NCBI GenBank assembly: GCA_964010765.1
Contig: CAXGMD010000095.1
Span: 1-10,758, forward strand
Origin: an uncultured bacterium
Lineage (GTDB): Bacteria; SAR324; NAC60-12
Reading direction: 5' to 3'
DNA length: 10,758 bases
Position 1 is the stretch's first letter; every line of letters starts with the position of its first letter. This document shows, one piece after another, positions 1-10,758 of this stretch. Below the pieces are notes generated by a model. The model made no database searches. It worked only from the letters and a program-made list of their open reading frames with translations, and was not told the origin of the DNA. The position numbers and the translations under genes were made by a program.

Positions 1-389
1 AATGGGGGACGAGCTATCATGGTGCTGGTTGGTGCCCACGCCATATTGAGGGCACTGATCACTTTCTGTTTTACACGCTTGAGAAAATGACAGGTCAGAA
101 ATTCCTACACGGTCAGCCAGTTGGACTAGGAGTCATCGTGGGATCTATGCTTCATGAGGATGGGGCAGAAGAGATGCTGGATACCATCTCAAGTATTGGA
201 TTGGACATCAGGCCAGAGGCAATGGGGCTGACCTGGAATCAATTAGTGGAGGGACTCAAGCTTTTACGAAGCTATGTAAACGAAGTTGGCCTCTGGCATT
301 CCATTGCTCACGATGTGAACATCAGTGACGGATTTATCGCTGATTTAAGAAGTAGACTTAACCAGGCCTATCATTACAAGAATGCTTAG
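1..389 (+). CDS. 3' part (5'-truncated by window edge) of a glycerol-1-phosphate dehydrogenase / glycerol dehydrogenase-like metal-dependent polyol dehydrogenase (dehydroquinate-synthase-like superfamily)
   Basis: The frame of ORF 87..389 is open back to position 3: WGTSYHGAGWCPRHIEGTDHFLFYTLEKMTGQKFLHGQPVGLG. This parallels the G1PDH pattern 'RPASGSEH...LHGEQVG' with both metal-binding His positions kept. Stop TAG at 387-389. Confidence 0.65.
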   Translation, partial: WGTSYHGAGWCPRHIEGTDHFLFYTLEKMTGQKFLHGQPVGLGVIVGSMLHEDGAEEMLDTISSIGLDIRPEAMGLTWNQLVEGLKLLRSYVNEVGLWHSIAHDVNISDGFIADLRSRLNQAYHYKNA

Positions 390-416: not shown

Positions 417-1388
417 TCAATAGTTTGTTTTTTCGTTTACCCAATCTAAAGATTTCTCCCATCTTTCCCAAGAAAGATCTGAGATTGGCTGCATTCCGAC
501 CACTGCTTTTTCCAAGTCTACTAGCTCTCCGTGACTATGCAGCGCAAGGTCACAACCCACCTCAAGGCAGCGTTGAATTCTCTCGGGCATCGTTCCGGAA
601 AGTGCCTTCATGAACAGACAATCTGTGACCAGCACTCCTTTAAAACCAATCCAATCACGAATGATGTCGCTGATGATTTTTTTAGAGAGTGTGGCCGGCC
701 ATTTGTCATCGAGTTCAGGGAATAGCAAGTGACTGGTCATGCCCCATGGAAGGTCAGCTAGCATCTGAAAAGGAAGAAAATCTGACTTTTTCAAAAAATC
801 CTCGGTCTCTCGAACAATCGGCAGTTCTTCGTGAGGATCTACAGCGGCTCGGCCATAGCCTGGCAGGTGCTTGACCGTTGGAATTACTCCGGCCTCACCT
901 AGCCCGTTAGCGCAGGCTCTAGCAAATGCTGCGACATCATTGGGATCGGAAGCAAAAGCTCGATCTCCAATTACGTCATGTGCATCGGGTATTAGTAGGT
1001 CGGCTACAGGAGCAGCATCCACCGTAATGCCCAAATCTTTGAGTCCTTTGCCAAGTTGCCAATAATTTTGGTGAATCCTTTGTTGGCTTTTCTCCTTGGT
1101 TCCCCCATCTTCCACGAGTGATCTTGCGGAGGGATAACGCTTCCAATTGGGCTGAGGCAATCTCTGAACCCGCCCCCCTTCTTCATCAATCAAGATGGCA
1201 AGATCTTCACGATCACAAACTTCGTGAAATTGTTGAACCAACCAGATGATTTGCTTTGGTTCCTTCAGATTTCTTGCAAATAGAATAAAGCCAAAGGGGG
1301 AGACCTTCTGAAAAAAATCAGCCCATTCTTTTTCAATCTCCAAGCCTGGGATTCCAAAAATAATGGGAAGTACGGGTTTTTTATCCAT
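417..1388 (-). CDS. nagZ: Beta-N-acetylhexosaminidase, single-domain GH3 (NagZ type)
   Basis: Motifs GFILFARN, IDEEGGRVQRL, APVADL, VIGDRAF, KHLPGYGRAAVDPH (variant of KH(F/I)PGHGxxxxDSH) and the nucleophile region GVLVTDCLFMKAL. Start taken at ATG 1388 (MDKKPVLPIIFG); the ORF-track extension to 1481 does not look NagZ-like. No signal peptide is visible. Confidence 0.9.
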   Translation of the reverse strand: MDKKPVLPIIFGIPGLEIEKEWADFFQKVSPFGFILFARNLKEPKQIIWLVQQFHEVCDREDLAILIDEEGGRVQRLPQPNWKRYPSARSLVEDGGTKEKSQQRIHQNYWQLGKGLKDLGITVDAAPVADLLIPDAHDVIGDRAFASDPNDVAAFARACANGLGEAGVIPTVKHLPGYGRAAVDPHEELPIVRETEDFLKKSDFLPFQMLADLPWGMTSHLLFPELDDKWPATLSKKIISDIIRDWIGFKGVLVTDCLFMKALSGTMPERIQRCLEVGCDLALHSHGELVDLEKAVVGMQPISDLSWERWEKSLDWVNEKTNY

Positions 1389-1540
1389 GAATGGGGAACT
1401 CAAATATGAATGTAGGGAGCTGGTTTGAGAATTTTTGAAAATATCAGAAAGACATTTTCTTTGATTTAGTGAAAGCCACAAATAGTTAAGAAAAGAAAAA
1501 CTAAAATAACCGTAGCAACTTCTGGCCCTTCAAAAAAAAG

Positions 1541-1569
1541 TTGTCTGATGAATCGAGCTGTTGTAATTT
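1541..1569 (+). promoter_or_regulatory. Candidate sigma70-type promoter for the ngcE operon
   Basis: TTGTCT (1541-1546), 17 nt spacer, TAATTT (1564-1569), preceded by an A-tract, in the divergent nagZ/ngcE intergenic region. Partial consensus match only. Confidence 0.3.
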
Positions 1570-1669
1570 CGCGCCTGCGATTGAGGTTCTCAAGGGCACA
1601 ATCAGGGTCTTTGAGCAAATACGATTTCAATGAGGGTTTTTTTCGCCTCATCTGTTCATTGGAGCTCGC

Positions 1670-3067
1670 ATGAAAAAATCGGGAATTTCACGAAGACGCT
1701 TTATTGAATACACGGGTGCAGCTGGTCTGGGTATTGGTCTCAGCTCGGTATTGCCTCAGATTTCGCTTGCCAAAACAGGCATTAAGGTAGCTTCAGGTGC
1801 CGCAAATCCATTGGGTTTGGCAGCAAATACTCAGGCTGAGGGTGTTTTCTTCAGTGGTGGATTCGGTCACGCTTATATCGAATACGCTGCAGAAATTTTT
1901 GCAGAAGTCCACCCAGGCAGCAGCATGTCGGTGGAAGGAATACAGAGAGTTGGTGAACGCTTACGGCCCAGAATCATCGCAGGGAATCCACCAGACGTAA
2001 TTGACAACAGTGGTGCTGGTAATCTGGACACGGGAGCCCTGGTTGGTGAAGGTGAAATCATGGATCTTGGGCCCCTGATGTCAGCACCAGCTCTTGATAC
2101 TCCAGGTAAAACATTTGGGGAGACCTTGTTTCCTGGTTCACAAACTTCTGGTCTTTTCGACGGCGTACAGCGCTACGTGAACATTGCTTTTACAGTCTTT
2201 GGAGTGTGGCATAGCAAGTCTCTCTTTGAAGAGAAGGGCTGGAATTACCCAACCACTTGGGACGGAATGCTCTCACTTTGTGACACCATCAAGTCATCGG
2301 GCATTGCACCTTGGACCTATCAAGGGAAATATCCTCAATACATGCTCTTTGGTCTCTTAGAGCCAATGGTCTCAAAAATTGGTGGGCCACAGATTTGGAA
2401 AGATGTTGATAACTTGGTTCCTGGCGCTTGGGAGCATCCTGCGATGCTACAAGCACTGAACATGATGAGGGCCTTGCATGACAACGGCTACATTATGGAA
2501 GGTACTCCTGGATTGACCCATACAGAATCTCAGGCTGAGTGGCTGCAGAAGAAGGCGGCCTTCATTCCATGTGGAACCTGGCTAGAAAATGAGATGCGCA
2601 GCATCACCCCGGTTGGATTCGACATGGTCATCAAGCCAGTACCATCTGACGATGCTTCCAAATTAAGCTGGATTGATGCGAGTTCCGGTGAGCCATTCAT
2701 GGTCTTTTCAAATGGGAAAAATCCAGTTGCAGGCATGGAGTTTTTACGCTGCTTGCTGAGCAAAGAATCTGCAAAGTGGTTTGCCCAAAATGTTGGTTCG
2801 ATTATGCCAGTGGTTGGTGGAGCAGAGGGAGTGGATTTGAGTTCTGCGATGACTTCTGCACTCACCGCAGTGGAGAATGCAGGGCCAAATATCCTAGACA
2901 GACCATCTTTCCCAGGCTGGTATTCTGACATCTACAGCGAAGTCAAGGATAGCATGGGTGCATTGCTGACAGGTCGTGCCAGCGCAGAGGAATTCATCGA
3001 GAGAGTTCAAGAGGCTTCCGACGAAGTTCGTGAAGATCCTGATATCGTCAAATTTAAACGAGCCTAA
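1670..3067 (+). CDS. ngcE: N-acetylglucosamine/diacetylchitobiose ABC transporter substrate-binding protein (NgcE family, CUT1), Tat-exported
   Basis: Twin-arginine motif SRRRFI and an h-region ending SLA|KT. NgcE-like segments ANPLG, FSGGFG, PRIIAGNPPDVIDNSGA, WTYQGKYPQY, GLTHTESQ, AAFIPCGTWLENEM and GEPFMV. SD GGAG at 1661-1664. Followed by two CUT1 permeases. Confidence 0.88.
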   Translation: MKKSGISRRRFIEYTGAAGLGIGLSSVLPQISLAKTGIKVASGAANPLGLAANTQAEGVFFSGGFGHAYIEYAAEIFAEVHPGSSMSVEGIQRVGERLRPRIIAGNPPDVIDNSGAGNLDTGALVGEGEIMDLGPLMSAPALDTPGKTFGETLFPGSQTSGLFDGVQRYVNIAFTVFGVWHSKSLFEEKGWNYPTTWDGMLSLCDTIKSSGIAPWTYQGKYPQYMLFGLLEPMVSKIGGPQIWKDVDNLVPGAWEHPAMLQALNMMRALHDNGYIMEGTPGLTHTESQAEWLQKKAAFIPCGTWLENEMRSITPVGFDMVIKPVPSDDASKLSWIDASSGEPFMVFSNGKNPVAGMEFLRCLLSKESAKWFAQNVGSIMPVVGGAEGVDLSSAMTSALTAVENAGPNILDRPSFPGWYSDIYSEVKDSMGALLTGRASAEEFIERVQEASDEVREDPDIVKFKRA

Positions 3068-3091
3068 TTGTAAAGGCTTCCTTCCTTCCAG

Positions 3092-3148
3092 GGGTAGATT
3101 TAAAACCTTTTTGAATCTACCCACGGGGCTTTTTAAGTTGTAAGCCCC
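3092..3148 (+). terminator. Tandem stem-loops between the binding-protein and permease genes (mRNA stabiliser or partial terminator)
   Basis: GGGTAGATTTAAAA-cct-TTTTGAATCTACCC (3092-3122; 14 bp stem with one G-U), then GGGGCTT-N10-AAGCCCC (3125-3148). No U-tract follows the second stem. Confidence 0.55.
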
Positions 3149-3177
3149 CTGCTCCCTCAGTTCCATCAAACTTTGGT

Positions 3178-4053
3178 ATGCGCCGCCACAAGTATAGGAT
3201 TATCATTCCATTCCTGGCTCCTGCCCTCATTCTATACAGCCTTTTCGTCATTTACCCCTACGCGCAGGCAATGTATGTGGCCTTCACAAAATGGAAAGGC
3301 CTCCGAAAGTCTCCGAGATTTGTGGGTCTCGACAACTTTGAAAAAATGCTTGGTGATGATCAATTCTGGAATGCACTCTCCAACAATCTGATTTATCTTG
3401 TTTTTTTGCCAATTATAACTCTTGGTTTTGCTTTGTTCATGGCCTTTATGATTTCTCAAAAGGTCCGGTTCAGTAATTTTTATCGGGTTACTTTCTTCTT
3501 TCCACAAGTGATGTCTGTGGTAGCGATCGGGATTCTTTGGAGTTTCGTTTATCATCCAACCATCGGCATTTTTAGTTCATTGCTCAAAGCAGTTGGCATT
3601 GAGAGGCCACCGATTTGGCTGGGGGATCCAGATACAGCCCTCTGGTCGATTGTGGCTGTAACGGTTTGGCAGTCGGCAGGATTCTTTATGGTGATTTTCA
3701 TGGCTGGCATGCTCTCTATCCCAAAATCACTTTATGAAGCGGCAGCGCTCGATGGGGCTGGTAGAGGATCAACCTTTTTTCGAATCACATTTCCCTTACT
3801 TTGGGAAAACACTCGATCTTCGCTCGTTTTCATCACTGTCATCGCGATGGACATGTTTGGCATTACCTTCACGATGACTCAGGGAGGACCTGATCGGTCG
3901 ACTGATGTGCTGGCTACGCTCTTATACGAACACGCGTTCTTACATAGTCGTTTTGGATATGCCACTAGTATTGCGATGGTTTACTTTGTCATTGTAATCG
4001 TTCTGACATTACTGATTTTCCGTGTGACGCGTCGAGAGACGATTGAATTCTAG
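3178..4053 (+). CDS. ngcF: Carbohydrate ABC transporter permease 1 (CUT1, NgcF/MalF-like)
   Basis: About six hydrophobic segments. Motifs FVGLDNF, FFFPQVMSVVAIGILWSFVY and WLGDP, plus the EAA loop IPKSLYEAAALDGA...FFRITFPLL. Symbol assigned from synteny with ngcE. Confidence 0.9.
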   Translation: MRRHKYRIIIPFLAPALILYSLFVIYPYAQAMYVAFTKWKGLRKSPRFVGLDNFEKMLGDDQFWNALSNNLIYLVFLPIITLGFALFMAFMISQKVRFSNFYRVTFFFPQVMSVVAIGILWSFVYHPTIGIFSSLLKAVGIERPPIWLGDPDTALWSIVAVTVWQSAGFFMVIFMAGMLSIPKSLYEAAALDGAGRGSTFFRITFPLLWENTRSSLVFITVIAMDMFGITFTMTQGGPDRSTDVLATLLYEHAFLHSRFGYATSIAMVYFVIVIVLTLLIFRVTRRETIEF

Positions 4054-4065
4054 GTAGGAGTTCGC

Positions 4066-4902
4066 ATGTACCAAGTGAGCCGCTGGTCTGCGGTATCCAC
4101 ACAAACGGTTCTGATTGGTTGGGCAGTAACCGTGATCTTTCCAATGATCTGGATGATCTATAGTTCGTTTAAGACCGATCAGGAATTGTTCTTCAGCCCA
4201 TGGGCCCCACCCGTGGAACTGCAGTGGGATAACTTCGCGAGAGCCTGGACAAAAGCTCATGTGGGAGATTATCTATTGAATACTCTGATTGTGGTTGTGC
4301 CTGCTCTGCTGTTGACATTAATTATCTCTGCGATGGCAGCTTATGTTTTGGCACGATTTGAATTTGTTGGGAGGCGTTTCCTCTTCTACATGTTTCTTTC
4401 TGGAATGCTATTCCCTGTATTTCTAGCCCTAGTGCCGCTCTTTAACTTGGTAAATCAATTAAAGATGCTCAACACCTTCCATGGATTGATTCTAGTCTAC
4501 ATCGCCTATTCTCTTCCCTTCACCATTTTCTTTCTGACAGGCTTCTTCAAAACTCTCCCAACTGAAATAGAAGAATCAGCGATTATGGATGGTGCTAATC
4601 CCTATCAGGTGTTCTTCAAGGTGATGCTACCAATGGCGTCACCTGGATTGATCAGCATGGGCATTTTCAACTTTTTGGGGATGTGGAACCAGTATGTTTT
4701 GCCCCTGGTATTGATCAGTGATGAGAGTAAGTACATGCTCTCTCAAGGTCTGGCATTCATGCTGTTCAAGCAATTCTATGAGAATGACTGGAGCGCTCTG
4801 TTTGCAGCGTTAACAATCATTATGGTGCCTACATTAATTGTATATATAACGTTTCAAAAGCAGATTCAGGATGGCATCACGACAGGTGCTTTAAAGGGTT
4901 GA
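4066..4902 (+). CDS. ngcG: Carbohydrate ABC transporter permease 2 (CUT1, NgcG/MalG-like)
   Basis: Motifs FPMIWMIYSSFKT and AAYVLARFEF, EAA loop LPTEIEESAIMDGA...FFKVMLPM, WNQY and the typical C-terminus GITTGALKG. SD AGGAG at 4056-4060. Symbol assigned from synteny. Confidence 0.9.
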   Translation: MYQVSRWSAVSTQTVLIGWAVTVIFPMIWMIYSSFKTDQELFFSPWAPPVELQWDNFARAWTKAHVGDYLLNTLIVVVPALLLTLIISAMAAYVLARFEFVGRRFLFYMFLSGMLFPVFLALVPLFNLVNQLKMLNTFHGLILVYIAYSLPFTIFFLTGFFKTLPTEIEESAIMDGANPYQVFFKVMLPMASPGLISMGIFNFLGMWNQYVLPLVLISDESKYMLSQGLAFMLFKQFYENDWSALFAALTIIMVPTLIVYITFQKQIQDGITTGALKG

Positions 4903-4935
4903 AGTTATTAACTTTACTTGCTTTATGGAAATCGA

Positions 4936-5643
4936 ATGAAAGTTCTTCTTGCGGGGGGCAGTGGAAGGGTAGCAACCCTAGTGATCCCCTTTCTCAAAAA
5001 GCAGCATGAGCTACGAGTCTATGATCGAAATCCCCCAGTGGATCAGTCATTGGAATTTCTTCAAGGAGAATTAACAGATCCTGTTGGTCTAGAAAAAGCC
5101 GTTGAGGGGATGGATGCTTTGATTTATCTGGCAATGGGTAGCGAAGACTGGGACACCTGGCAAGGGGTTGACTCTGCGTACGACGTGAATGTCAAGGGTC
5201 TACATTTCTTGATGAGAAGCGCTCAGGCAGCAGGGATTCAACAAGCTGTATATTGCAGCAGTATGTCGGTCTATGCGGATCTCCGGAAGCGCTACTTTCA
5301 AGATGAGGAAATCCCACCAGATGAAACAGCGCTTTATGGTTTCACGAAGTGGCTTGGAGAGGAAATTTGCCGCAATGCCTGGCGAAGATGGGGAATGCAT
5401 ACTAATGCTCTGCGTCTCTGTCATCCTACCTTGAAAGAAAAGTGGCTGAGCGAGACCCAACAAGGAGTTACTACAATAGCGACAACTGATGAAGATGTTG
5501 CCTCTGCAATGCTGGCAGCACTTGAACTGAAGGCAGGTTTTCAGGCTTTCATGATCAGTGGAGACTATGCGCAAAAAATTATGTGCATGACCAAGGCTGA
5601 ACGAATGTTGGGTTGGACGCCAAAGGCTAGACCAGCCACATAA
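4936..5643 (+). CDS. NAD(P)-dependent oxidoreductase, extended SDR (epimerase/dehydratase family; uronate/aldose 1-dehydrogenase-like)
   Basis: Rossmann start KVLLAGGSGRVA, acidic residue at the end of beta2 (VYDR), YCSSMSVY, catalytic YxxxK (LYGFTK), and ALRL. Start taken at ATG 4936 rather than TTG 4918. Confidence 0.82.
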   Translation: MKVLLAGGSGRVATLVIPFLKKQHELRVYDRNPPVDQSLEFLQGELTDPVGLEKAVEGMDALIYLAMGSEDWDTWQGVDSAYDVNVKGLHFLMRSAQAAGIQQAVYCSSMSVYADLRKRYFQDEEIPPDETALYGFTKWLGEEICRNAWRRWGMHTNALRLCHPTLKEKWLSETQQGVTTIATTDEDVASAMLAALELKAGFQAFMISGDYAQKIMCMTKAERMLGWTPKARPAT

Positions 5644-5732
5644 AGCTTATTTGGTAATTGATATTTCATTAGATCTGCTTCATCAAAATCCTGAGTCTGC
5701 TGAACAAACCTAACAATCTAGGAGGAATGAAA

Positions 5733-6254
5733 ATGGCTTTTATGGTAAAGAAACGTGGAAAGTTAACCTACTACTATGAGGGTGAAGATCCTGTCTTGTC
5801 AGCAATGGTGGTAGAAGAACAACCTGATGGAGACCTAAGAATTCACTTCTCAGGGCTTACCGGAGGGCACTCTGCAACAAAGGTTCTTCAGTTGGATTCA
5901 GTCACAAGCATGGAACCTGCGATTGAAGTTCCACTGGTCTTTCGTTGCTGGGAATATTGGTTACAGGAGGCTGGAATCTGTCAGTCGATCGCAGAAATAG
6001 ACTTCATCGAAATTCACGCATTTGGAGCTCAACCAAAATCTCCCAGCCCCCTCTCTGATCCAGCAGGTTATCGCAAAGAGCAGGAACGAGTACGTGCAGA
6101 ATATGCAAAGGCTTACCGTAATTTCTTCAAGGAGAAATGTCCTCAAAATGGAGTTCCAGCTCGTTTTACTGTCCATGTTGTCGACTTTCCGGATGAAGCC
6201 GCCTCCTATGAGTTCTATGGTGTAGGTCTGTTGCAGCAAGATCATGGTGAATGA
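5733..6254 (+). CDS. Hypothetical protein, probable divergent RidA/YjgF/YER057c/UK114-fold protein
   Basis: Strong SD AGGAGGA (5720-5726) fits ATG 5733. IHFSGLTG resembles Rid 'vf.SGq.g'. AYRNFF...PARFTVHVVDFP...YEFYGVG resembles Rid 'vY.efF...PARt.v.V..LP...vEie.iA'. CDS status is confident; the fold call is less so. Confidence 0.6.
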   Translation: MAFMVKKRGKLTYYYEGEDPVLSAMVVEEQPDGDLRIHFSGLTGGHSATKVLQLDSVTSMEPAIEVPLVFRCWEYWLQEAGICQSIAEIDFIEIHAFGAQPKSPSPLSDPAGYRKEQERVRAEYAKAYRNFFKEKCPQNGVPARFTVHVVDFPDEAASYEFYGVGLLQQDHGE

Positions 6255-6327
6255 GATTCAGAGACACAGAGCGCTGACGTAATGAAGATTCATCATTGCT
6301 AAACCATATGTTTCCCGAAAGGAATCC

Positions 6328-7434
6328 ATGAGTTCGAATTACAAATCGCTTGGGATTCGGCCTGTTATCAATGCGAATGCTACCCTCACGAAACTTGGTG
6401 GTTCACTGATGCCTGCAGAGGTTCGTCAGGCGATGCAGGATGCTGCACAATCCTTCGTTGACATGCATGATCTTCAGCAGAAAGTGGGGGTCCGCTTGGC
6501 AGAAATCACACGGAATGAAGCTGCCTTCGTAAGTTGTGGCGCTGCGACAGGGTTGCTGCTGGCAACGGCTGCATGCATCCAAAAAGTTTCCGGAGCAACC
6601 TATGAGAGCTTCCCCAATCCCCCTGGAACACAGAATGAGGTCATTGTTCAAAGGATGCACCGAAATCCATACGACTATGCTGTGAGGCAAGCAGGTGCCT
6701 ATTTGGTGGAAATTGGGACGATGGATGGAACTTCCCTAGAGGACTTGGAAAACGCTTACAGCGCTTCAACTGTTGCTATTTTCTGGTTTCAGGGTGCGAT
6801 GAATCAGCCGAATGAACTCTCTTTGGAAGATGTCATTCAATCCGCCAAAAAGCGGAGTGTACCTGTCATTGTGGATGGAGCTGCCCAGCTGCCACCTGCT
6901 AATAATCTTTGGAACTTCACACATTTAGGGGCTGATCTGGCAATTTTCAGCGGAGGCAAGGACTTGTCAGGCCCACAAGCATCGGGACTAGTAGTTGGAA
7001 AGTCGGAATGGATTGAGCGGATCAGGATATTGGGTGCTCCCAACCATGGAGTGGGAAGACCGATGAAGGTAGGCAAGGAGGAAATGATGGGCCTCTTGGC
7101 AGCAGTAGAACGCTACGTGAGCCTTGATCACAAACAGTTGCTGGAAGTTTACGAGCGTCGTGTTCAGATCTGGATCCAAGGCTTGAACGGAAAAGGTGGA
7201 CTCTCAGCCAAAAGAGATTATCCCAATGAAGCCGGACAACCTGTCCCCAGAGCCCTTGTTCAGATTCCCGACAATTGGTCAAAGGATCAACTTGTAGACA
7301 AATTGATGGCAGGCGAACCTGCAGTATCTGTTGCGCCCTCTGAGAGACTAAACGCCATTTTTCTCAATCCAATGACGGTGAGTGATGAAGAGACGCAGAT
7401 TGTGTTGGAGCAGATTCTCAAGGTAATCAACTAA
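6328..7434 (+). CDS. SelA-related PLP-dependent enzyme, DgaE-like (D-glucosaminate(-6-phosphate) ammonia-lyase family)
   Basis: GIRPVINANATLTKLGGS, VSCGAATGL, NEVIVQRMH, PVIVDGAA, PLP-Lys motif FSGGK (K211, codon 6958-6960) followed by GPQASGLVVG, and GRPMKVGKEEMMGLLAAVE. At 368 aa it lacks the N-terminal domain of true bacterial SelA. Confidence 0.82.
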   Translation: MSSNYKSLGIRPVINANATLTKLGGSLMPAEVRQAMQDAAQSFVDMHDLQQKVGVRLAEITRNEAAFVSCGAATGLLLATAACIQKVSGATYESFPNPPGTQNEVIVQRMHRNPYDYAVRQAGAYLVEIGTMDGTSLEDLENAYSASTVAIFWFQGAMNQPNELSLEDVIQSAKKRSVPVIVDGAAQLPPANNLWNFTHLGADLAIFSGGKDLSGPQASGLVVGKSEWIERIRILGAPNHGVGRPMKVGKEEMMGLLAAVERYVSLDHKQLLEVYERRVQIWIQGLNGKGGLSAKRDYPNEAGQPVPRALVQIPDNWSKDQLVDKLMAGEPAVSVAPSERLNAIFLNPMTVSDEETQIVLEQILKVIN

Positions 7435-7491
7435 TTTGTTATCTTTTGCCATCAATCTGAATCAACGATGTTTTTGAAATAAAGGAGTTTT

Positions 7492-8427
7492 GTGCCCAAA
7501 CCAAATCTATCTGCTCATCCTACGGAAGTGGTCAAACCGGATGACTTTGACCACTTTTGGCAGGAAATCATGGCGGAAGTCGACTCCATCCCACTGAATG
7601 CCGCGATTGAGTTGGATCCTTTGCGTTCCAGTGAGGAAGTCGAGGTGTTCGAAGTCAAATATGACAGCCTTGATGGTTTGCGAATCGCTGGCTGGTATTG
7701 TCTGCCTAGAGAAAGAACCAAACCTCTTCCTGCCCGTGTTTTCTATCCAGGCTACATCAGTGAGCCAACCCTGCCAAAATCACATGCTGCCCAAGGTTAT
7801 TCTACCTTTGGTGCTGCACCACGGGGCAAATTACGGAGCAATGCTGCATTCAATCCCGGATATCCCGGATTGTTAACTCACAACATCAATGATCGAGACC
7901 ATTATGGTTACAAGGGATTTTACATTGATGCAGTGCGGGTGATTGATTTTCTACTTGAGCAACCAGAAGTAGACTCAGATCGGATTGGAATCCAAGGGAG
8001 TAGCCAGGGTGGTGCATTGACTCTTGTTGTGTCCGCACTCCGTCAACAAGTTAGAGCGGCCTCAGCTGGAGCCCCTTATCTTGCGGGAGTCGTTGATGCC
8101 TTTAAGTTGACCCGAACTTATCCGTATGAGGAGATCAACGATTATCTGGGAATTCAACCAGAACATAGCTCTGCGATAGCGAATACTTGGAATTATTATG
8201 ACTGCTTTAACTTTGCAGAGCGGATTCAATGTCCAATTATTGTCTACATTGGCCTGCAAGATGACGTCTGCCCCCCAGAGACTGCATATCCCTTGATGGA
8301 AAAGATTGGTACGTCGAATAAAAAGCTCTACGAATACGAAGGACATGGTCATGACGCCAATCATCATGAGCATGATCATGTGGTGGATGCTTTTTTTGAC
8401 GACCAATTGAAACCAGCGCGATCTTGA
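7492..8427 (+). CDS. Acetylxylan esterase / cephalosporin-C deacetylase family (CE7, AXE1), catalytically intact
   Basis: GTG start with SD AAGGAG (7482-7487). PDDFDHFW N-terminus, nucleophile elbow GSSQGG (7996-8013), acid in GLQDDVCPP, His in GHGHD, and YPYEEI. Confidence 0.88.
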   Translation: MPKPNLSAHPTEVVKPDDFDHFWQEIMAEVDSIPLNAAIELDPLRSSEEVEVFEVKYDSLDGLRIAGWYCLPRERTKPLPARVFYPGYISEPTLPKSHAAQGYSTFGAAPRGKLRSNAAFNPGYPGLLTHNINDRDHYGYKGFYIDAVRVIDFLLEQPEVDSDRIGIQGSSQGGALTLVVSALRQQVRAASAGAPYLAGVVDAFKLTRTYPYEEINDYLGIQPEHSSAIANTWNYYDCFNFAERIQCPIIVYIGLQDDVCPPETAYPLMEKIGTSNKKLYEYEGHGHDANHHEHDHVVDAFFDDQLKPARS

Positions 8428-8457
8428 GTCACCGAGCTCTGAAAAATACAAGGAATC

Positions 8458-9324
8458 ATGAAACCAAAGGACTTTGATCAATTTTGGGCTGGTATTGAAA
8501 GCGACTTGAATTCAGTGGTCCCAGAGCCTGAATTGAAGGAACTTCCCATTCGCAGCAAACCTCAATTCACTGTGTACGGGTTGTGGCTATCAAGTGTGAA
8601 AGGTTATCGAATCTTTGCTTACTACAGTGTGCCAAAAGGTGAAGGACCTTTCCCAGTCATTTACCATCTCCCAAACTATGGGAGCGTGGTTCACATCCCA
8701 CCATTTGAAGAGCGTTGTAAGTATATCTGTGTAGCCTTGTGTCATCGAGGCCAACGACTCTCTGATGAGCCTTTTGCGGCTGCATACCCGGGTTTATTGA
8801 CCTTGGGTATTGAAGCTGCGGAATCTTACATTTACCGTGAGATTGCTGGAGATTGCTTGTCTGTCATGGAATTTTTGAAAAGTCGTGAAGAAGTGGACCG
8901 TCGAAGAATTTGCTTACTTGGTGGTGAATTAGCGCTTTGGACAGCAGCCCGTAGATCTGAGGCAGCGGCACTGCACTATACCCCTGCGCTCCATTACAAC
9001 TCCCTGAAGAGAGCATCTCAGACTAGCAACTATCCTCTCGAAGAATTCAACGATCACTTACGAGGCTCAGCATCCTCTCGATTGTCCGTAGAGAAAACTC
9101 TGTCTTATTTCGAACCAGTTCATCACGCTCCCCAAATTAAAATGCCCACCATGTTAGTTGAAGACTCTGTGGGGTTCTGTGATGCTTTGTTTGAGGCTTT
9201 TGCCGGGCCTGTTGATAGAGTGCCTTTTCAGCACTCGAGTTATCGAGATGGGGTTCGACAAGCAAACTGGATTGCAGACAAGCTTGATAATGGCCAGCCG
9301 ATCCTACCAGCCCATTGGTGCTAG
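8458..9324 (+). CDS. CE7/AXE1-family paralogue lacking the GxSQG nucleophile motif (probable pseudoenzyme)
   Basis: Own SD AAGGA and ATG. KPKDFDQFW, RIFAYYSVPKGEGPFP, HRGQ, YPGLLT, EVDRRRI and YPLEEFNDHL align with the upstream CE7. The elbow reads ICLLGGELAL with no Ser. The reading frame is intact (288 aa). Confidence 0.8.
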   Translation: MKPKDFDQFWAGIESDLNSVVPEPELKELPIRSKPQFTVYGLWLSSVKGYRIFAYYSVPKGEGPFPVIYHLPNYGSVVHIPPFEERCKYICVALCHRGQRLSDEPFAAAYPGLLTLGIEAAESYIYREIAGDCLSVMEFLKSREEVDRRRICLLGGELALWTAARRSEAAALHYTPALHYNSLKRASQTSNYPLEEFNDHLRGSASSRLSVEKTLSYFEPVHHAPQIKMPTMLVEDSVGFCDALFEAFAGPVDRVPFQHSSYRDGVRQANWIADKLDNGQPILPAHWC

Positions 9325-9344
9325 ATTTTCGGTCAATCACAATT

Positions 9345-10481
9345 TCACTGGAATCGTAGACTGCACTCAGCATGATTTGACCCCTGAACAGCGAGCAGTG
9401 GATGAATCAACTGAGTTAAAGTGAGATGATCCCCAAGGCTATCTTCGACTGAAATATTTGCCTCATCTACCCGGAACACCGTTAGGTCTGCGTTCTGGCC
9501 AACTTTCAACCAATCTTTACCCTCAGTGGGGTCTAAAAAGGAAGAGGGTCTTGTTGATCCAGCTGCAATGACTTGATCCAGCGGCATTCCCAGATTCAAA
9601 AGTTTTGAAAGGGTTGTAGGCAGGTCGTAGGCGGGTCCCTTGATGCTGTTGCGGTGCAGGTCGGTGCTAATCAAATCTGTTTCAATTCCCTGCTCTCTCG
9701 CAAAGCGCATCACCTTGAAGGAAAAAGAGGCTGCACCATGCCCAACGTCCAATAAAACCCCTCGAGCTCGAGCTTCGTGGACAGCGGCAAGTGACCTTGG
9801 ATCCTCCATCAGATTACCCCCGGGTTTCCCATGAAAGGCATGGGTGACCACATCCCCTTCCTCAAGAAGATCAAGCACGTCTTCCAACAAGGGTGGTGGT
9901 TCCCCAACATGGACGATCAGTGGCAAGCCTGCGACACGGGCTACCTTCCTAGCTACTCGTACCGCTTCAGCCCCCAAGTCTCCAGTTATGACCTGACTAG
10001 CCCTGCACTTGATCCCCCGAATTAGTTCAGGATAATTCTCAATGGTTTTTAAAGTTCGTTCGACATTGACTGAGCGAAACCCAAGAGAAAGTTCACTGAT
10101 TCGATTGCAGGCGACAAGCCCGATGCTGCCGATGTTCAAGAACGCAAAGAGTCTCTCCTTGGCCTGTTTAGCAATGAATTCTGAAAACCCAACAAAGTTG
10201 GCTTCCCCTGCAGAGCCACAATCAACTAAAGTAGTCACTCCAGTTTCAAGTCCAGCCTGTTCAGGCCGGATGGAGATGTCGGTCGCCCCAAAATAAACGT
10301 GTACGTGCAGATCCACCCAACCTTTCGAAATCAGGGCATCTTCAAATACATACTCTCTAAGACCCTTTGGGTTGTCCAGCTGAGATCCAAGGCGCGAGAT
10401 CTTACCGTCTTCGATTTCAAGATCAATTGGTTGTGATGCGGTATTTAGGCTGTTCAAAGGGGTGACTTTTCTGATGATCAT
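9345..10481 (-). CDS. Amidohydrolase-superfamily metallo-deacetylase, COG3964 / EF_0837 / Atu3266 type (often mis-annotated as dihydroorotase)
   Basis: DLHVHV (HxH), GVTTLVDCGSAG, AFLNIGSIGL, IRGIKCR (carboxylated Lys position), IVHVG, VTHAFHGK, LLDVGHGAASFSF, STDLH (catalytic Asp) and ADLTVF. Start ATG 10481 has SD AGAAGGAA (complement of 10486-10493). Confidence 0.85.
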   Translation of the reverse strand: MIIRKVTPLNSLNTASQPIDLEIEDGKISRLGSQLDNPKGLREYVFEDALISKGWVDLHVHVYFGATDISIRPEQAGLETGVTTLVDCGSAGEANFVGFSEFIAKQAKERLFAFLNIGSIGLVACNRISELSLGFRSVNVERTLKTIENYPELIRGIKCRASQVITGDLGAEAVRVARKVARVAGLPLIVHVGEPPPLLEDVLDLLEEGDVVTHAFHGKPGGNLMEDPRSLAAVHEARARGVLLDVGHGAASFSFKVMRFAREQGIETDLISTDLHRNSIKGPAYDLPTTLSKLLNLGMPLDQVIAAGSTRPSSFLDPTEGKDWLKVGQNADLTVFRVDEANISVEDSLGDHLTLTQLIHPLLAVQGSNHAECSLRFQ

Positions 10482-10758
10482 TGGGTTCCTTCTACAAATC
10501 ATTTATTTGAAAATGCGAGATTTTGCTGCCCATCATTCCAGCAAGGTAACTTTTTCATCCGACCAAAAGTATGAACTTAAGGAATTTAGTCGAGCAATTT
10601 TTGGTGATTTAGACATCATTTATCAAAATTCAGTTGTCTTTTTCCTTAGAAATTGACTTATGTCCCTGATAATTTTTTTCTTATTCGAAAAGGAAATCAT
10701 TACCATTCCAATGCGAACGAAGTTAAATAGTTCAATATCAACTATCTAGGGTAGATAT

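Follow-up and report, generated by a model that had tools for sequence, protein, structure and literature searches.

Gene content and arrangement of the locus

The 10,758-base stretch of DNA analysed here (hereafter, the window) is one entire contig, C95, of a metagenome-assembled genome (MAG) of a SAR324 bacterium, and our subject is a set of transport and catabolic genes on it which could link the uptake of an N-acetylhexosamine-type sugar to the breakdown of an amino-sugar acid. The MAG (G000) consists of 266 contigs with a total length of 3.86 Mb and is 92.4% complete. The nearest public loci, in which the product of the central gene is 87–98% identical to that of the window, belong to MAGs assigned to SAR324 or 'Deltaproteobacteria'. 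Since the window is a whole contig, the locus is cut at both ends.

Eleven open reading frames (ORFs), all scanned against Pfam and NCBIfam, occupy the window. A same-strand row with gaps of 12–110 bases comprises the genes of a substrate-binding protein of NgcE type, two permeases of an ATP-binding cassette (ABC) transporter, a compact short-chain dehydrogenase/reductase (SDR), a 175-aa orphan protein (named U175), a DgaE-like pyridoxal phosphate (PLP)-dependent enzyme, and two esterases of carbohydrate esterase family 7 (CE7). A NagZ-like gene on the minus strand is divergent from this row, and a COG3964 amidohydrolase gene, also on the minus strand, is convergent with it. All the genes listed in the initial annotation of this DNA, namely the NgcE system, NagZ, SDR, Rid-like protein, DgaE-like enzyme, and COG3964 deacetylase, were located in the window; as had also been stated there, none of the 11 ORFs matched a kinase, a phosphotransferase system (PTS), NagA, or NagB. 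That gene account nevertheless omitted the two CE7 genes, which lie within the interval it described.

Conservation of the gene row in other genomes

The search for comparable loci was anchored on the gene of the 175-aa protein: 95 relatives were found in a set of genomes with one per species, and 80 of their loci were retained, the ORFs of which were compared with the window proteins by blastp (E ≤ 1e-10, at least 50% query coverage). Because many loci are cut by contig ends, all counts given for them are lower bounds. The DgaE-like gene is present in 45 of the 80 loci and the COG3964 amidohydrolase gene in 42, with both found together in 36; in 33 loci, no more than 1.5 kb separates the amidohydrolase gene from the orphan gene. 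An SDR gene was detected in 20 loci at any identity and in 16 at an identity of at least 40%, while NgcE-like proteins are encoded in 17 loci, both CE7 paralogs in 14, and NagZ in six. Co-conservation of the NgcE, SDR, DgaE-like, and COG3964 genes had been set beforehand as a check on the proposed pathway, and this combination was found in nine loci (L009–L011, L013, L014, L017–L019, and L026), with at least 40% identity for both NgcE and the SDR, an outcome that speaks for the proposal. The row SDR–orphan–amidohydrolase–DgaE-like enzyme is kept in MAGs of SAR324, Trueperaceae, Spirochaetaceae, and Anaerolineaceae, and since it is kept in other genomes, the gene arrangement is not a product of chance. 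The amidohydrolase encoded beside the orphan in other phyla is only about 30% identical to that of the window, yet it scores 382.6 bits with the NF006689 model, which is over its cut-off.

Two related loci carry an extended version of the row. The gene order in L017 (positions 994–13500) and L026 is NgcE, two permeases, a SIS-domain protein, the SDR, a true RidA (TIGR00004, 107.1 bits with a cut-off of 106.25), a D-serine-dehydratase-like PLP enzyme, the orphan, the amidohydrolase, and the DgaE-like enzyme. The D-serine-dehydratase-like enzyme belongs to fold type III, so that two different PLP lyases are encoded in one row. Only L017 has genes for a DeoR regulator and a NagK-like kinase at the start of the row, and a beta-lactamase-family serine hydrolase gene is located there between the orphan and the amidohydrolase.

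The orphan gene also has other recurrent neighbours. In Chloroflexota it is preceded by a gene of the MR_MLE superfamily, the product of which scores 177.8 bits as a galactonate dehydratase versus 39.3 bits as an L-Ala-D/L-Glu epimerase; genes at least 77% identical to the L056 query occur in seven of the 80 loci, and in six of these the distance to the orphan gene is no more than about 2 kb. An RraA-like aldolase-family gene directly follows the orphan gene (at about +0.8 kb) in 12 loci (L074, L075, L077–L084, L086, and L087). Judging by their family assignments, the MR_MLE and RraA-like neighbours make or split 2-keto-3-deoxy acids, which is a sugar-acid-type context for the orphan. The 12 loci with RraA-like genes belong to Latescibacterota, Gemmatimonadota, and unclassified MAGs and contain none of the window's other genes, while genes of sulfatases, Zn-ADH, and PhyH dioxygenases are found nearby.

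An orphan protein family with a predicted Rid fold

The U175 gene occupies positions 5727..6254 (+), although its homologues begin at the second Met codon, at position 5733. No Pfam or NCBIfam match was found at E ≤ 0.001, including the Rid models PF01042 and TIGR00004, and there was no sequence match in the PDB even at E 10. At the same time, 1,695 homologues were detected at E ≤ 0.001. The 120 homologues listed are 73–98% identical to U175, unnamed or annotated as 'hypothetical protein', and devoid of Pfam domains. The family is unusually tight, with identities of 63–98% across phyla. A HMMER search against 1.84 billion representative sequences returned 148 matches, most of them fragments from within the family; no remote homologue with a name was among them, and the ESM Atlas yielded only a 'hypothetical protein' cluster (score 0.86). 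Other, longer forms of the orphan carry no informative domain, or unrelated domains (His_Phos_1, MerR) on single sequences.

An AlphaFold model of U175 built from a 20-sequence alignment had a pLDDT of 77.5 and a pTM of 0.76. The top Foldseek matches of this model were all Rid/YjgF proteins (E from 3e-4 to 2e-3), re-alignment gave Z scores of 8–9.2 with an rmsd of about 3 Å over 113–126 aligned residues, and the 50 structural matches listed were all either Rid/YjgF-family or uncharacterised proteins. A prediction with three copies scored 0.93 (0.93, 0.93, and 0.87 in individual runs) versus 0.00 for the best control; in the calibration, which concerned two copies and not three, 20 of 30 proteins solved as same-chain pairs came up to a score of 0.93, as against one of 23 solved as single chains. 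The trimer runs share at least 93% of their contacts, with a partner pLDDT of at least 86. The predicted interface includes residues 141–155, a segment containing the invariant P-A-R-F-T motif, and the invariant R146 of this motif lies within the interface. In the RidA subfamily, a conserved arginine is needed for imine hydrolysis. The PARFT motif can be aligned with the 'PPARTT' of the true RidA of L017, but this alignment is non-significant (hhalign probability 0.66%, E 0.087).

The designation 'Rid-like' given to this protein in the initial annotation thus holds at the fold level (Z scores, predicted trimer) but not at the level of sequence membership. U175 resembles the Rid/YjgF/UK114 enamine-imine deaminases in its predicted fold, its predicted trimeric state, and the presence of P-A-R-x-T at the predicted subunit interface, and differs from them in the lack of detectable sequence membership and in being about 45 residues longer.

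Enzymes encoded next to the orphan

The COG3964/PRK09237 metal-dependent amidohydrolase gene is located at 9345..10502 (−). The predicted protein scores above the NF006689 cut-off (376.2 vs 371 bits), while its score with the TIGR03583 EF_0837 model is 293.3 bits (cut-off 432). Only four PDB entries matched at E ≤ 0.001, namely 2ogj, 8wzy, 2ics, and 8je0, with no D-aminoacylase and neither 9KB1 nor 9KB3 among them. The nearest structure is 2ogj (2.4e-99), which we take to be that of the COG3964 member Atu3266. The latter reportedly hydrolyses substrates of the acetyl-(R)-mandelate type, and an activity of this kind would suit an N-acetyl-D-amino-acid-like sugar acid. By analogy, we propose that the window enzyme may be an N-acetyl-amino-aldonate deacetylase.

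The DgaE-like gene (6328..7434, +; TIGR01437, 221.1 bits) encodes a fold-type-I PLP enzyme of a divergent subfamily and is its sole copy in the genome apart from SelA. The best PDB matches are 8t7j (4e-42) and DgaE itself (7lc0, 6e-39), the latter over residues 4–364, i.e., full length. Literature searches on the PDB entries 8T7J, 8JE0, and 8WZY retrieved no paper. The segment 'FSGGKDLSGP' of the window protein aligns with 'YSGAKAFNAP' of DgaE, and the lysine of 'SG(G/A)K', which is presumably the Schiff-base lysine, is kept. DgaE is an aldonate ammonia-lyase of a PTS-fed Salmonella pathway, and, on the basis of this relationship, the window enzyme is proposed to be a 2-amino-2-deoxy-aldonate ammonia-lyase. 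Full-length homology and the conserved PLP lysine are shared with the Salmonella enzyme, whereas the partner mannose-family PTS and the DgaF/Eda aldolase of that system are missing from the window, and no Eda was detected in the 92.4%-complete genome. Without a PTS at the locus, it is not apparent where a 6-phosphate would come from.

The SDR gene is located at 4918..5643 (+; PF01370, 72 bits), with a likely start at the ATG at 4936, and encodes a compact, NAD-type member of the extended SDRs of 235–241 aa. The GGSG NAD motif, S108, Y134, and K138 are invariant in 12 orthologues. The match with the glucose-6-phosphate dehydrogenase Azf is full-length but weak (53.8 bits with a cut-off of 400), and the PDB matches are 4id9 (6e-16) and the uronate dehydrogenases 3rft and 3ay3 (about 1e-6). 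The 235-aa protein is colinear with the 265-aa uronate dehydrogenases and lacks a large C-terminal nucleotide-sugar domain. Its predicted structure (pLDDT 77) matched known folds with Z scores of 20–23, but uronate dehydrogenase (Z 20–21.2) and NDP-sugar epimerases (Z 20–22) were not discriminated. Because the latter match the model equally well, oxidation of C1, which the initial annotation assigned to this enzyme, can only be inferred.

Within the phylum of the window, the SDR orthologue is patchily distributed, being present in nine of 88 genomes including G000; of the eight further genomes in the genus of the window, six carry it. Such a distribution suggests that the module is accessory and transferable. 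A public 423-aa protein (P0269) that looked like an SDR–orphan fusion was rejected: the match with the SDR covers only residues 1–148 and that with the orphan only residues 2–51, with unrelated sequence between, and the protein is therefore a gene call across frameshifted sequence. It confirms only that the SDR and orphan genes are adjacent on another contig.

Two CE7 genes follow the DgaE-like gene. The first (7492..8427, +; PF05448, 199.6 bits) encodes a member of the AXE1/cephalosporin-C deacetylase family with an intact GSSQGG motif; its nearest structure is 1l7a (3e-47), and G(S/G)SQGG was found in all 15 sequences compared. The second (8458..9324, +; PF05448, 83.7 bits) encodes a CE7-fold paralog without the serine nucleophile, in which GxSQGG is replaced by G(G/N/D)(E/D) plus a four-residue gap in all 14 sequences; the RG(Q/K) motif is kept. 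The two paralogs are always paired, both being present in the same 14 loci (L009–L016, L028, L035, L036, L044, L047, and L056). Their sequences suggest that the second protein may be a conserved serine-less partner subunit of the first, and that the pair could act as an O-deacetylase or lactonase. The pathway scheme of the initial annotation was therefore incomplete, since both genes remained unaccounted for.

Transporter, NagZ, and flanking genes

The substrate-binding protein (1670..3067, +) scores 461.5 bits with TIGR03851, over the NgcE equivalog cut-off of 399.65, and carries a twin-arginine (TAT) signal (TIGR01409, 21 with a cut-off of 16.7). The genes of permease 1 (3178..4053, +; PF00528, 55.5 bits; best matches to UgpA/MalF-type sugar permeases) and permease 2 (4066..4902, +; PF00528, 62 bits) follow in the NgcF-like and NgcG-like positions. 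Binders of NgcE type are known for neutral GlcNAc (N-acetylglucosamine) and chitobiose. No ATPase gene was found among the ORFs of the window, and many MsiK/UgpC-type ATPases are encoded elsewhere in the genome; in Streptomyces, the shared ATPase MsiK serves NgcEFG. The system resembles this Streptomyces importer (TIGR03851) in passing the equivalog cut-off, in having two adjacent permeases, and in the lack of an ATPase gene in the operon, but it differs in its occurrence in SAR324, in the TAT signal, and in forming one operon with catabolic enzymes. The nearest solved relatives of the binding protein are 9h0n (2.9e-30) and the chitin-oligosaccharide binders NagB1 (7ehp) and NagB2 (7eho) of Paenibacillus. 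The first is a Bifidobacterium binder, and the associated paper deals with the uptake of fucosylated lacto-N-biose blocks of human milk oligosaccharides (HMO). The nearest relatives thus bind GlcNAc-containing oligosaccharides, and the gene context suggests that the imported substrate may be of a similar kind.

The NagZ-like GH3 beta-N-acetylhexosaminidase gene (417..1481, −; PF00933, 172.1 bits; NF003740, 185.9 bits with a cut-off of 207) has SAR324 orthologues with products of 323–329 aa, and these lengths indicate that the true start is probably downstream of 1481. Although NagZ is present in the window, as the initial annotation stated, its membership in the cluster is not general: orthologues adjoin it in just six of the 80 loci, all of SAR324 type. 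The classical role of NagZ is in cell-wall recycling.

At the left end, positions 3..389 (+) encode the C-terminal 128 aa of an Fe-ADH_2/glycerol-1-phosphate-dehydrogenase-like protein (NF002022, 34.4 bits, far under the cut-off), which are 91% identical to residues 225–352 of the L010 orthologue; the L010 and L009 orthologues match PF13685 (Fe-ADH_2). Residues 1–264 of the former match C30:35310–36101, where the N-terminal part lies at the end of that contig (C30:35310–36132), which thus runs on into the left end of the window. The Fe-ADH_2/G1PDH-like gene precedes NagZ in SAR324 relatives, and in L009 (1287–4610) two Fe-ADH_2 paralogs upstream flank an MsiK/UgpC-type ATPase gene (ABC_tran and TOBE_2). 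Upstream of the window, C30 (L096, 4823–11137) carries an M81/MlrC peptidase-family gene, a PdxA-family dehydrogenase, a GntR/FCD regulator, and a TctABC tripartite transporter. The genes that are right-hand neighbours in relatives (TauD, GFO) sit in this genome within contig C19, behind a TRAP transporter.

Genome background and RNA libraries

The initial annotation assumed that the pathway bypasses NagK, NagA, and NagB, and this is not evident at the level of the genome, in which a NagA-like gene, a NagB-like gene, and a single full ROK kinase were found, so that the classical route is not obviously lacking. The former two genes are located on contig C72 and score 197 bits (cut-off 225.65) and 131.8 bits (cut-off 236.9), respectively. 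The same region of C72 (L007, 3628–17644) also contains genes for a GntR regulator, a PhyH-like dioxygenase, an N-acylglucosamine 2-epimerase-like protein, an Opp-type ABC system with an inserted sulfatase, and glucuronate isomerase, and has the appearance of a pathway for sulfated amino-sugar or uronate oligomers. A KdgK-like PfkB gene on C162 scores 184 bits (cut-off 400). Six genes of the dihydrodipicolinate synthase (DHDPS) family and six RraA-like genes were found, and some of them might substitute for an Eda-type KDPG aldolase. No LPMO10 (lytic polysaccharide monooxygenase; PF03067) and no GH18 chitinase were detected in the 92.4%-complete genome, which is weak evidence of their absence.

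Seventeen runs recorded as RNA hold 35–63% of the sampled words of window positions 1500–9400. Contigs assembled from four of these libraries in four studies, with at least 95% likeness, cover 26–30 of the 30 window bins and bridge the orphan/DgaE-like, DgaE-like/CE7, and CE7/CE7 junctions. These data are assembled contigs without strand, transcript ends, or expression level; they may include DNA, and one contig spans the divergent NagZ/NgcE promoter region. The data are therefore only consistent with transcription. The contigs of two runs diverge from the window just past the stop codon of the serine-less CE7 paralog, with their loose ends at 9324 and 9333 (window 9324–9345), suggesting strain variation in the short convergent spacer. 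Promoter and terminator scans gave fewer sites than shuffled sequences (10 vs 13.2 and 9 vs 11.2, respectively), and the inverted repeats in two promoter regions were unremarkable.

Proposed function

The products of the locus may take up an N-acetylhexosamine-type sugar and convert it, by oxidation and without phosphorylation, to a 2-keto-3-deoxy acid, with acetate and ammonium as the other products, a proposal for and against which we find the chances evenly balanced. More generally, and with the same even standing, it could be regarded as a cytoplasmic amino-sugar-acid breakdown module that has become joined, in this SAR324 lineage, to an N-acetylhexosamine-sugar importer. The TAT-exported NgcE-type protein and the two permeases, energised by an ATPase encoded elsewhere, would import GlcNAc, chitobiose, or a close relative, as the gene context suggests, and NagZ would split the disaccharides. 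The compact NAD-dependent SDR would then oxidise the anomeric carbon to a lactone or aldonate (N-acetylglucosaminate, GlcNAc1A), a site of oxidation that is again suggested by context. By analogy with the chemistry of their families, the COG3964 amidohydrolase would take off the N-acetyl group and the DgaE-like enzyme would eliminate the 3-hydroxyl and amino groups, after which the predicted trimeric Rid-fold protein could speed hydrolysis of the enamine/imine to a 2-keto-3-deoxy-aldonate of the 2-keto-3-deoxygluconate (KDG) type, with release of ammonium. The subsequent fate of the keto acid, too, is a matter of context.

The proposal can also be put in a more detailed form, which we consider possible though rather doubtful. 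The locus would then provide a hitherto undescribed oxidative route from GlcNAc or chitobiose that needs neither LPMO nor phosphorylation and relies on a uronate-dehydrogenase-like SDR, the COG3964 enzyme, and a new DgaE subfamily; U175 would represent a very highly conserved branch of the Rid superfamily, not recognised before, that acts as a dedicated imine hydrolase or tautomerase, the CE7 proteins would form a heteromeric lactonase of an active and a serine-less subunit, and gene transfer would have dispersed the module over uncultured SAR324, Chloroflexota, Deinococcota, and Spirochaetota.

Comparison with known pathways

Deacetylation followed by deamination is known from experiments on the ong pathway, by which Pseudoalteromonas prydzensis uses chitin oxidatively (Jiang et al. 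2022, PMC9537276). According to that report, OngA, a GH20 enzyme, splits LPMO-made GlcNAc-GlcNAc1A, and OngB, OngC, and KdgK convert GlcNAc1A via glucosaminate (GlcN1A) and KDG to KDG-6-P in vitro; OngC is a fold-type-III PLP deaminase that also deaminates D-serine and D-threonine, the cluster includes a RidA (OngD), and complete ong clusters occur almost only in Gammaproteobacteria. OngB is a D-aminoacylase-like deacetylase, as described in the structural study (Wang et al. 2025, PMC12017989). The order of steps proposed for the window after oxidation is alike, with a hexosaminidase, an N-deacetylase, PLP-dependent deaminating elimination, and a Rid-type protein in the cluster. However, none of the enzymes of the window locus is orthologous to those of ong. 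A COG3964/PRK09237 protein is found instead of the D-aminoacylase-like OngB, a fold-type-I DgaE-like enzyme instead of the fold-type-III OngC (PLP enzymes of the fold type of OngC being present only in the related L017 and L026), GH3 NagZ instead of GH20 OngA, and an ABC system of NgcE type instead of TonB and inner-membrane transporters. There is no KdgK in the window cluster, and no AA10 LPMO was detected in the genome, while the additional NAD-dependent SDR could make the oxidised sugar inside the cell.

An oxidative GlcNAc route with C1 oxidation and deamination to a KDG-type product by a DgaE homologue was predicted in silico for Natrarchaeobius in 2025 (PMC12343721). In that proposal, the order is different, with CE14 deacetylation first, followed by a glucose dehydrogenase and an unknown kinase, and the route includes no COG3964 enzyme, Rid-fold orphan, or NgcE operon. 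Literature searches, whose coverage left out most subscription journals, retrieved no published description of the present gene set. The statement of the initial annotation that the genes had not been described as a pathway can therefore be retained for this set of enzymes, but not for the chemistry, as the post-oxidation steps have been in print since 2022 (PMC9537276) and a DgaE-based route was predicted in 2025 (PMC12343721).

Alternative explanations

The same downstream chemistry would be required if the bacterium scavenged already oxidised GlcNAc-GlcNAc1A (chitobionic acid) or GlcNAc1A released by the LPMOs of other organisms, which we consider unlikely. NagZ would split the disaccharide, the deacetylase, lyase, and Rid-fold protein would take GlcNAc1A, and the SDR would serve only the released GlcNAc half or have another role. 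The sequence of deacetylase, PLP lyase, and Rid protein equals that of ong, where OngA splits GlcNAc-GlcNAc1A (PMC9537276), NagZ adjoins the cluster in SAR324 loci, and the genome shows neither LPMO10 nor GH18, although this absence counts for little in an incomplete MAG. The binder, however, is of a type known for neutral sugars, and the SDR is kept beside the orphan in 16 of the 80 loci, including loci without NagZ, which suggests that it acts on the main substrate. A different amino sugar, such as an N-acetylhexosamine bearing O-acetyl groups or other modifications, a derivative of GalNAc or ManNAc, or a sugar of the cell wall, seems distinctly unlikely. The SDR would then oxidise a position other than C1, the DgaE-like enzyme would be a lyase or aminotransferase, and the CE7 pair would strip O-acetyl groups first. 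Such a substrate would explain the conservation of two O-acetyl-esterase-family genes with the DgaE-like gene in 14 loci and would agree with the equal proximity of the SDR fold to sugar 4-epimerases and dehydratases, the divergence of the DgaE-like enzyme under its family cut-offs, the SIS-domain genes added in L017 and L026 and the NagK-like gene in L017, and the cell-wall role of NagZ. Against it stand the colinearity of the SDR with uronate dehydrogenases and its lack of a large nucleotide-sugar domain, the aldonate ammonia-lyase activity of DgaE, which of all characterised proteins is nearest to the PLP enzyme, and the sugar-acid chemistry of the orphan's other neighbours.

It is highly improbable, in our view, that the core is not concerned with sugars, the COG3964, DgaE-like, and Rid-fold proteins degrading N-acyl-D-amino acids or peptide-derived hydroxy-amino acids and the link to NgcE in SAR324 being secondary. 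M81/MlrC peptidase-family genes occur with the core in Chloroflexota loci and on C30, a beta-lactamase-family hydrolase gene is inserted in L017, and Atu3266 is said to act on acetyl-(R)-mandelate-type substrates. The D-serine and D-threonine deaminase activity of OngC also fits (PMC9537276). Nine loci nevertheless couple the core to an NgcE-type importer and the SDR, and the MR_MLE neighbours score best as sugar-acid dehydratases. Moreover, N-acetyl-glucosaminate is itself an N-acetyl-D-amino acid, and such chemistry is thus compatible with a sugar substrate, too.

Several observations weigh against our preferred reading of the locus as an oxidative amino-sugar pathway. The SDR is far under every equivalog cut-off, and its assignment to C1 oxidation amounts to a guess, while the DgaE-like protein is under both family cut-offs (TIGR01437, 221.1 vs 385.3; NF047797, 171.7 vs 600). 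L017 and L026 hold both OngC-like and DgaE-like enzymes, so that the latter may act on a substrate other than glucosaminate. The good score of the U175 trimer may reflect likeness to solved Rid trimers in the PDB, and its calibration concerned pairs. None of the genes in question was found in 27 of the 80 loci, and M81/MlrC genes, which match in 14 loci (in six with at least 60% identity to the L056 query) and also lie about 6–7 kb upstream on C30 in this genome, point as recurrent neighbours towards peptide-like substrates. Given the NagA-like, NagB-like, and ROK genes, there is no evident need for a bypass. KDG as the end product, as named in the initial annotation, did not find support either: no Eda (TIGR01182, PF01081) was detected in the 92.4%-complete genome, and the 80 loci contain neither KdgK-like nor DHDPS-like genes. 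Lastly, the possible DNA origin of the RNA-library contigs limits what they can add.

Implications

Amino-sugar polymers such as chitin form a major reservoir of carbon and nitrogen in the sea, and SAR324 is an abundant, uncultured lineage of the deep ocean. The enzyme set and a previously unrecognised family with a predicted Rid fold are new here, while the post-oxidation chemistry is already known from ong. The four core proteins are small and could easily be tested in vitro. If the proposed function is correct, the internal oxidation step would make the route independent of LPMOs, and a first function would be assigned to the 175-aa Rid-fold family, with its 1,695 homologues and no Pfam entry, to a DgaE subfamily, and to COG3964, for which we know of no natural substrate. 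It would also follow that amino-sugar-acid catabolism is not confined to Gammaproteobacteria and was invented at least twice with unrelated enzymes.

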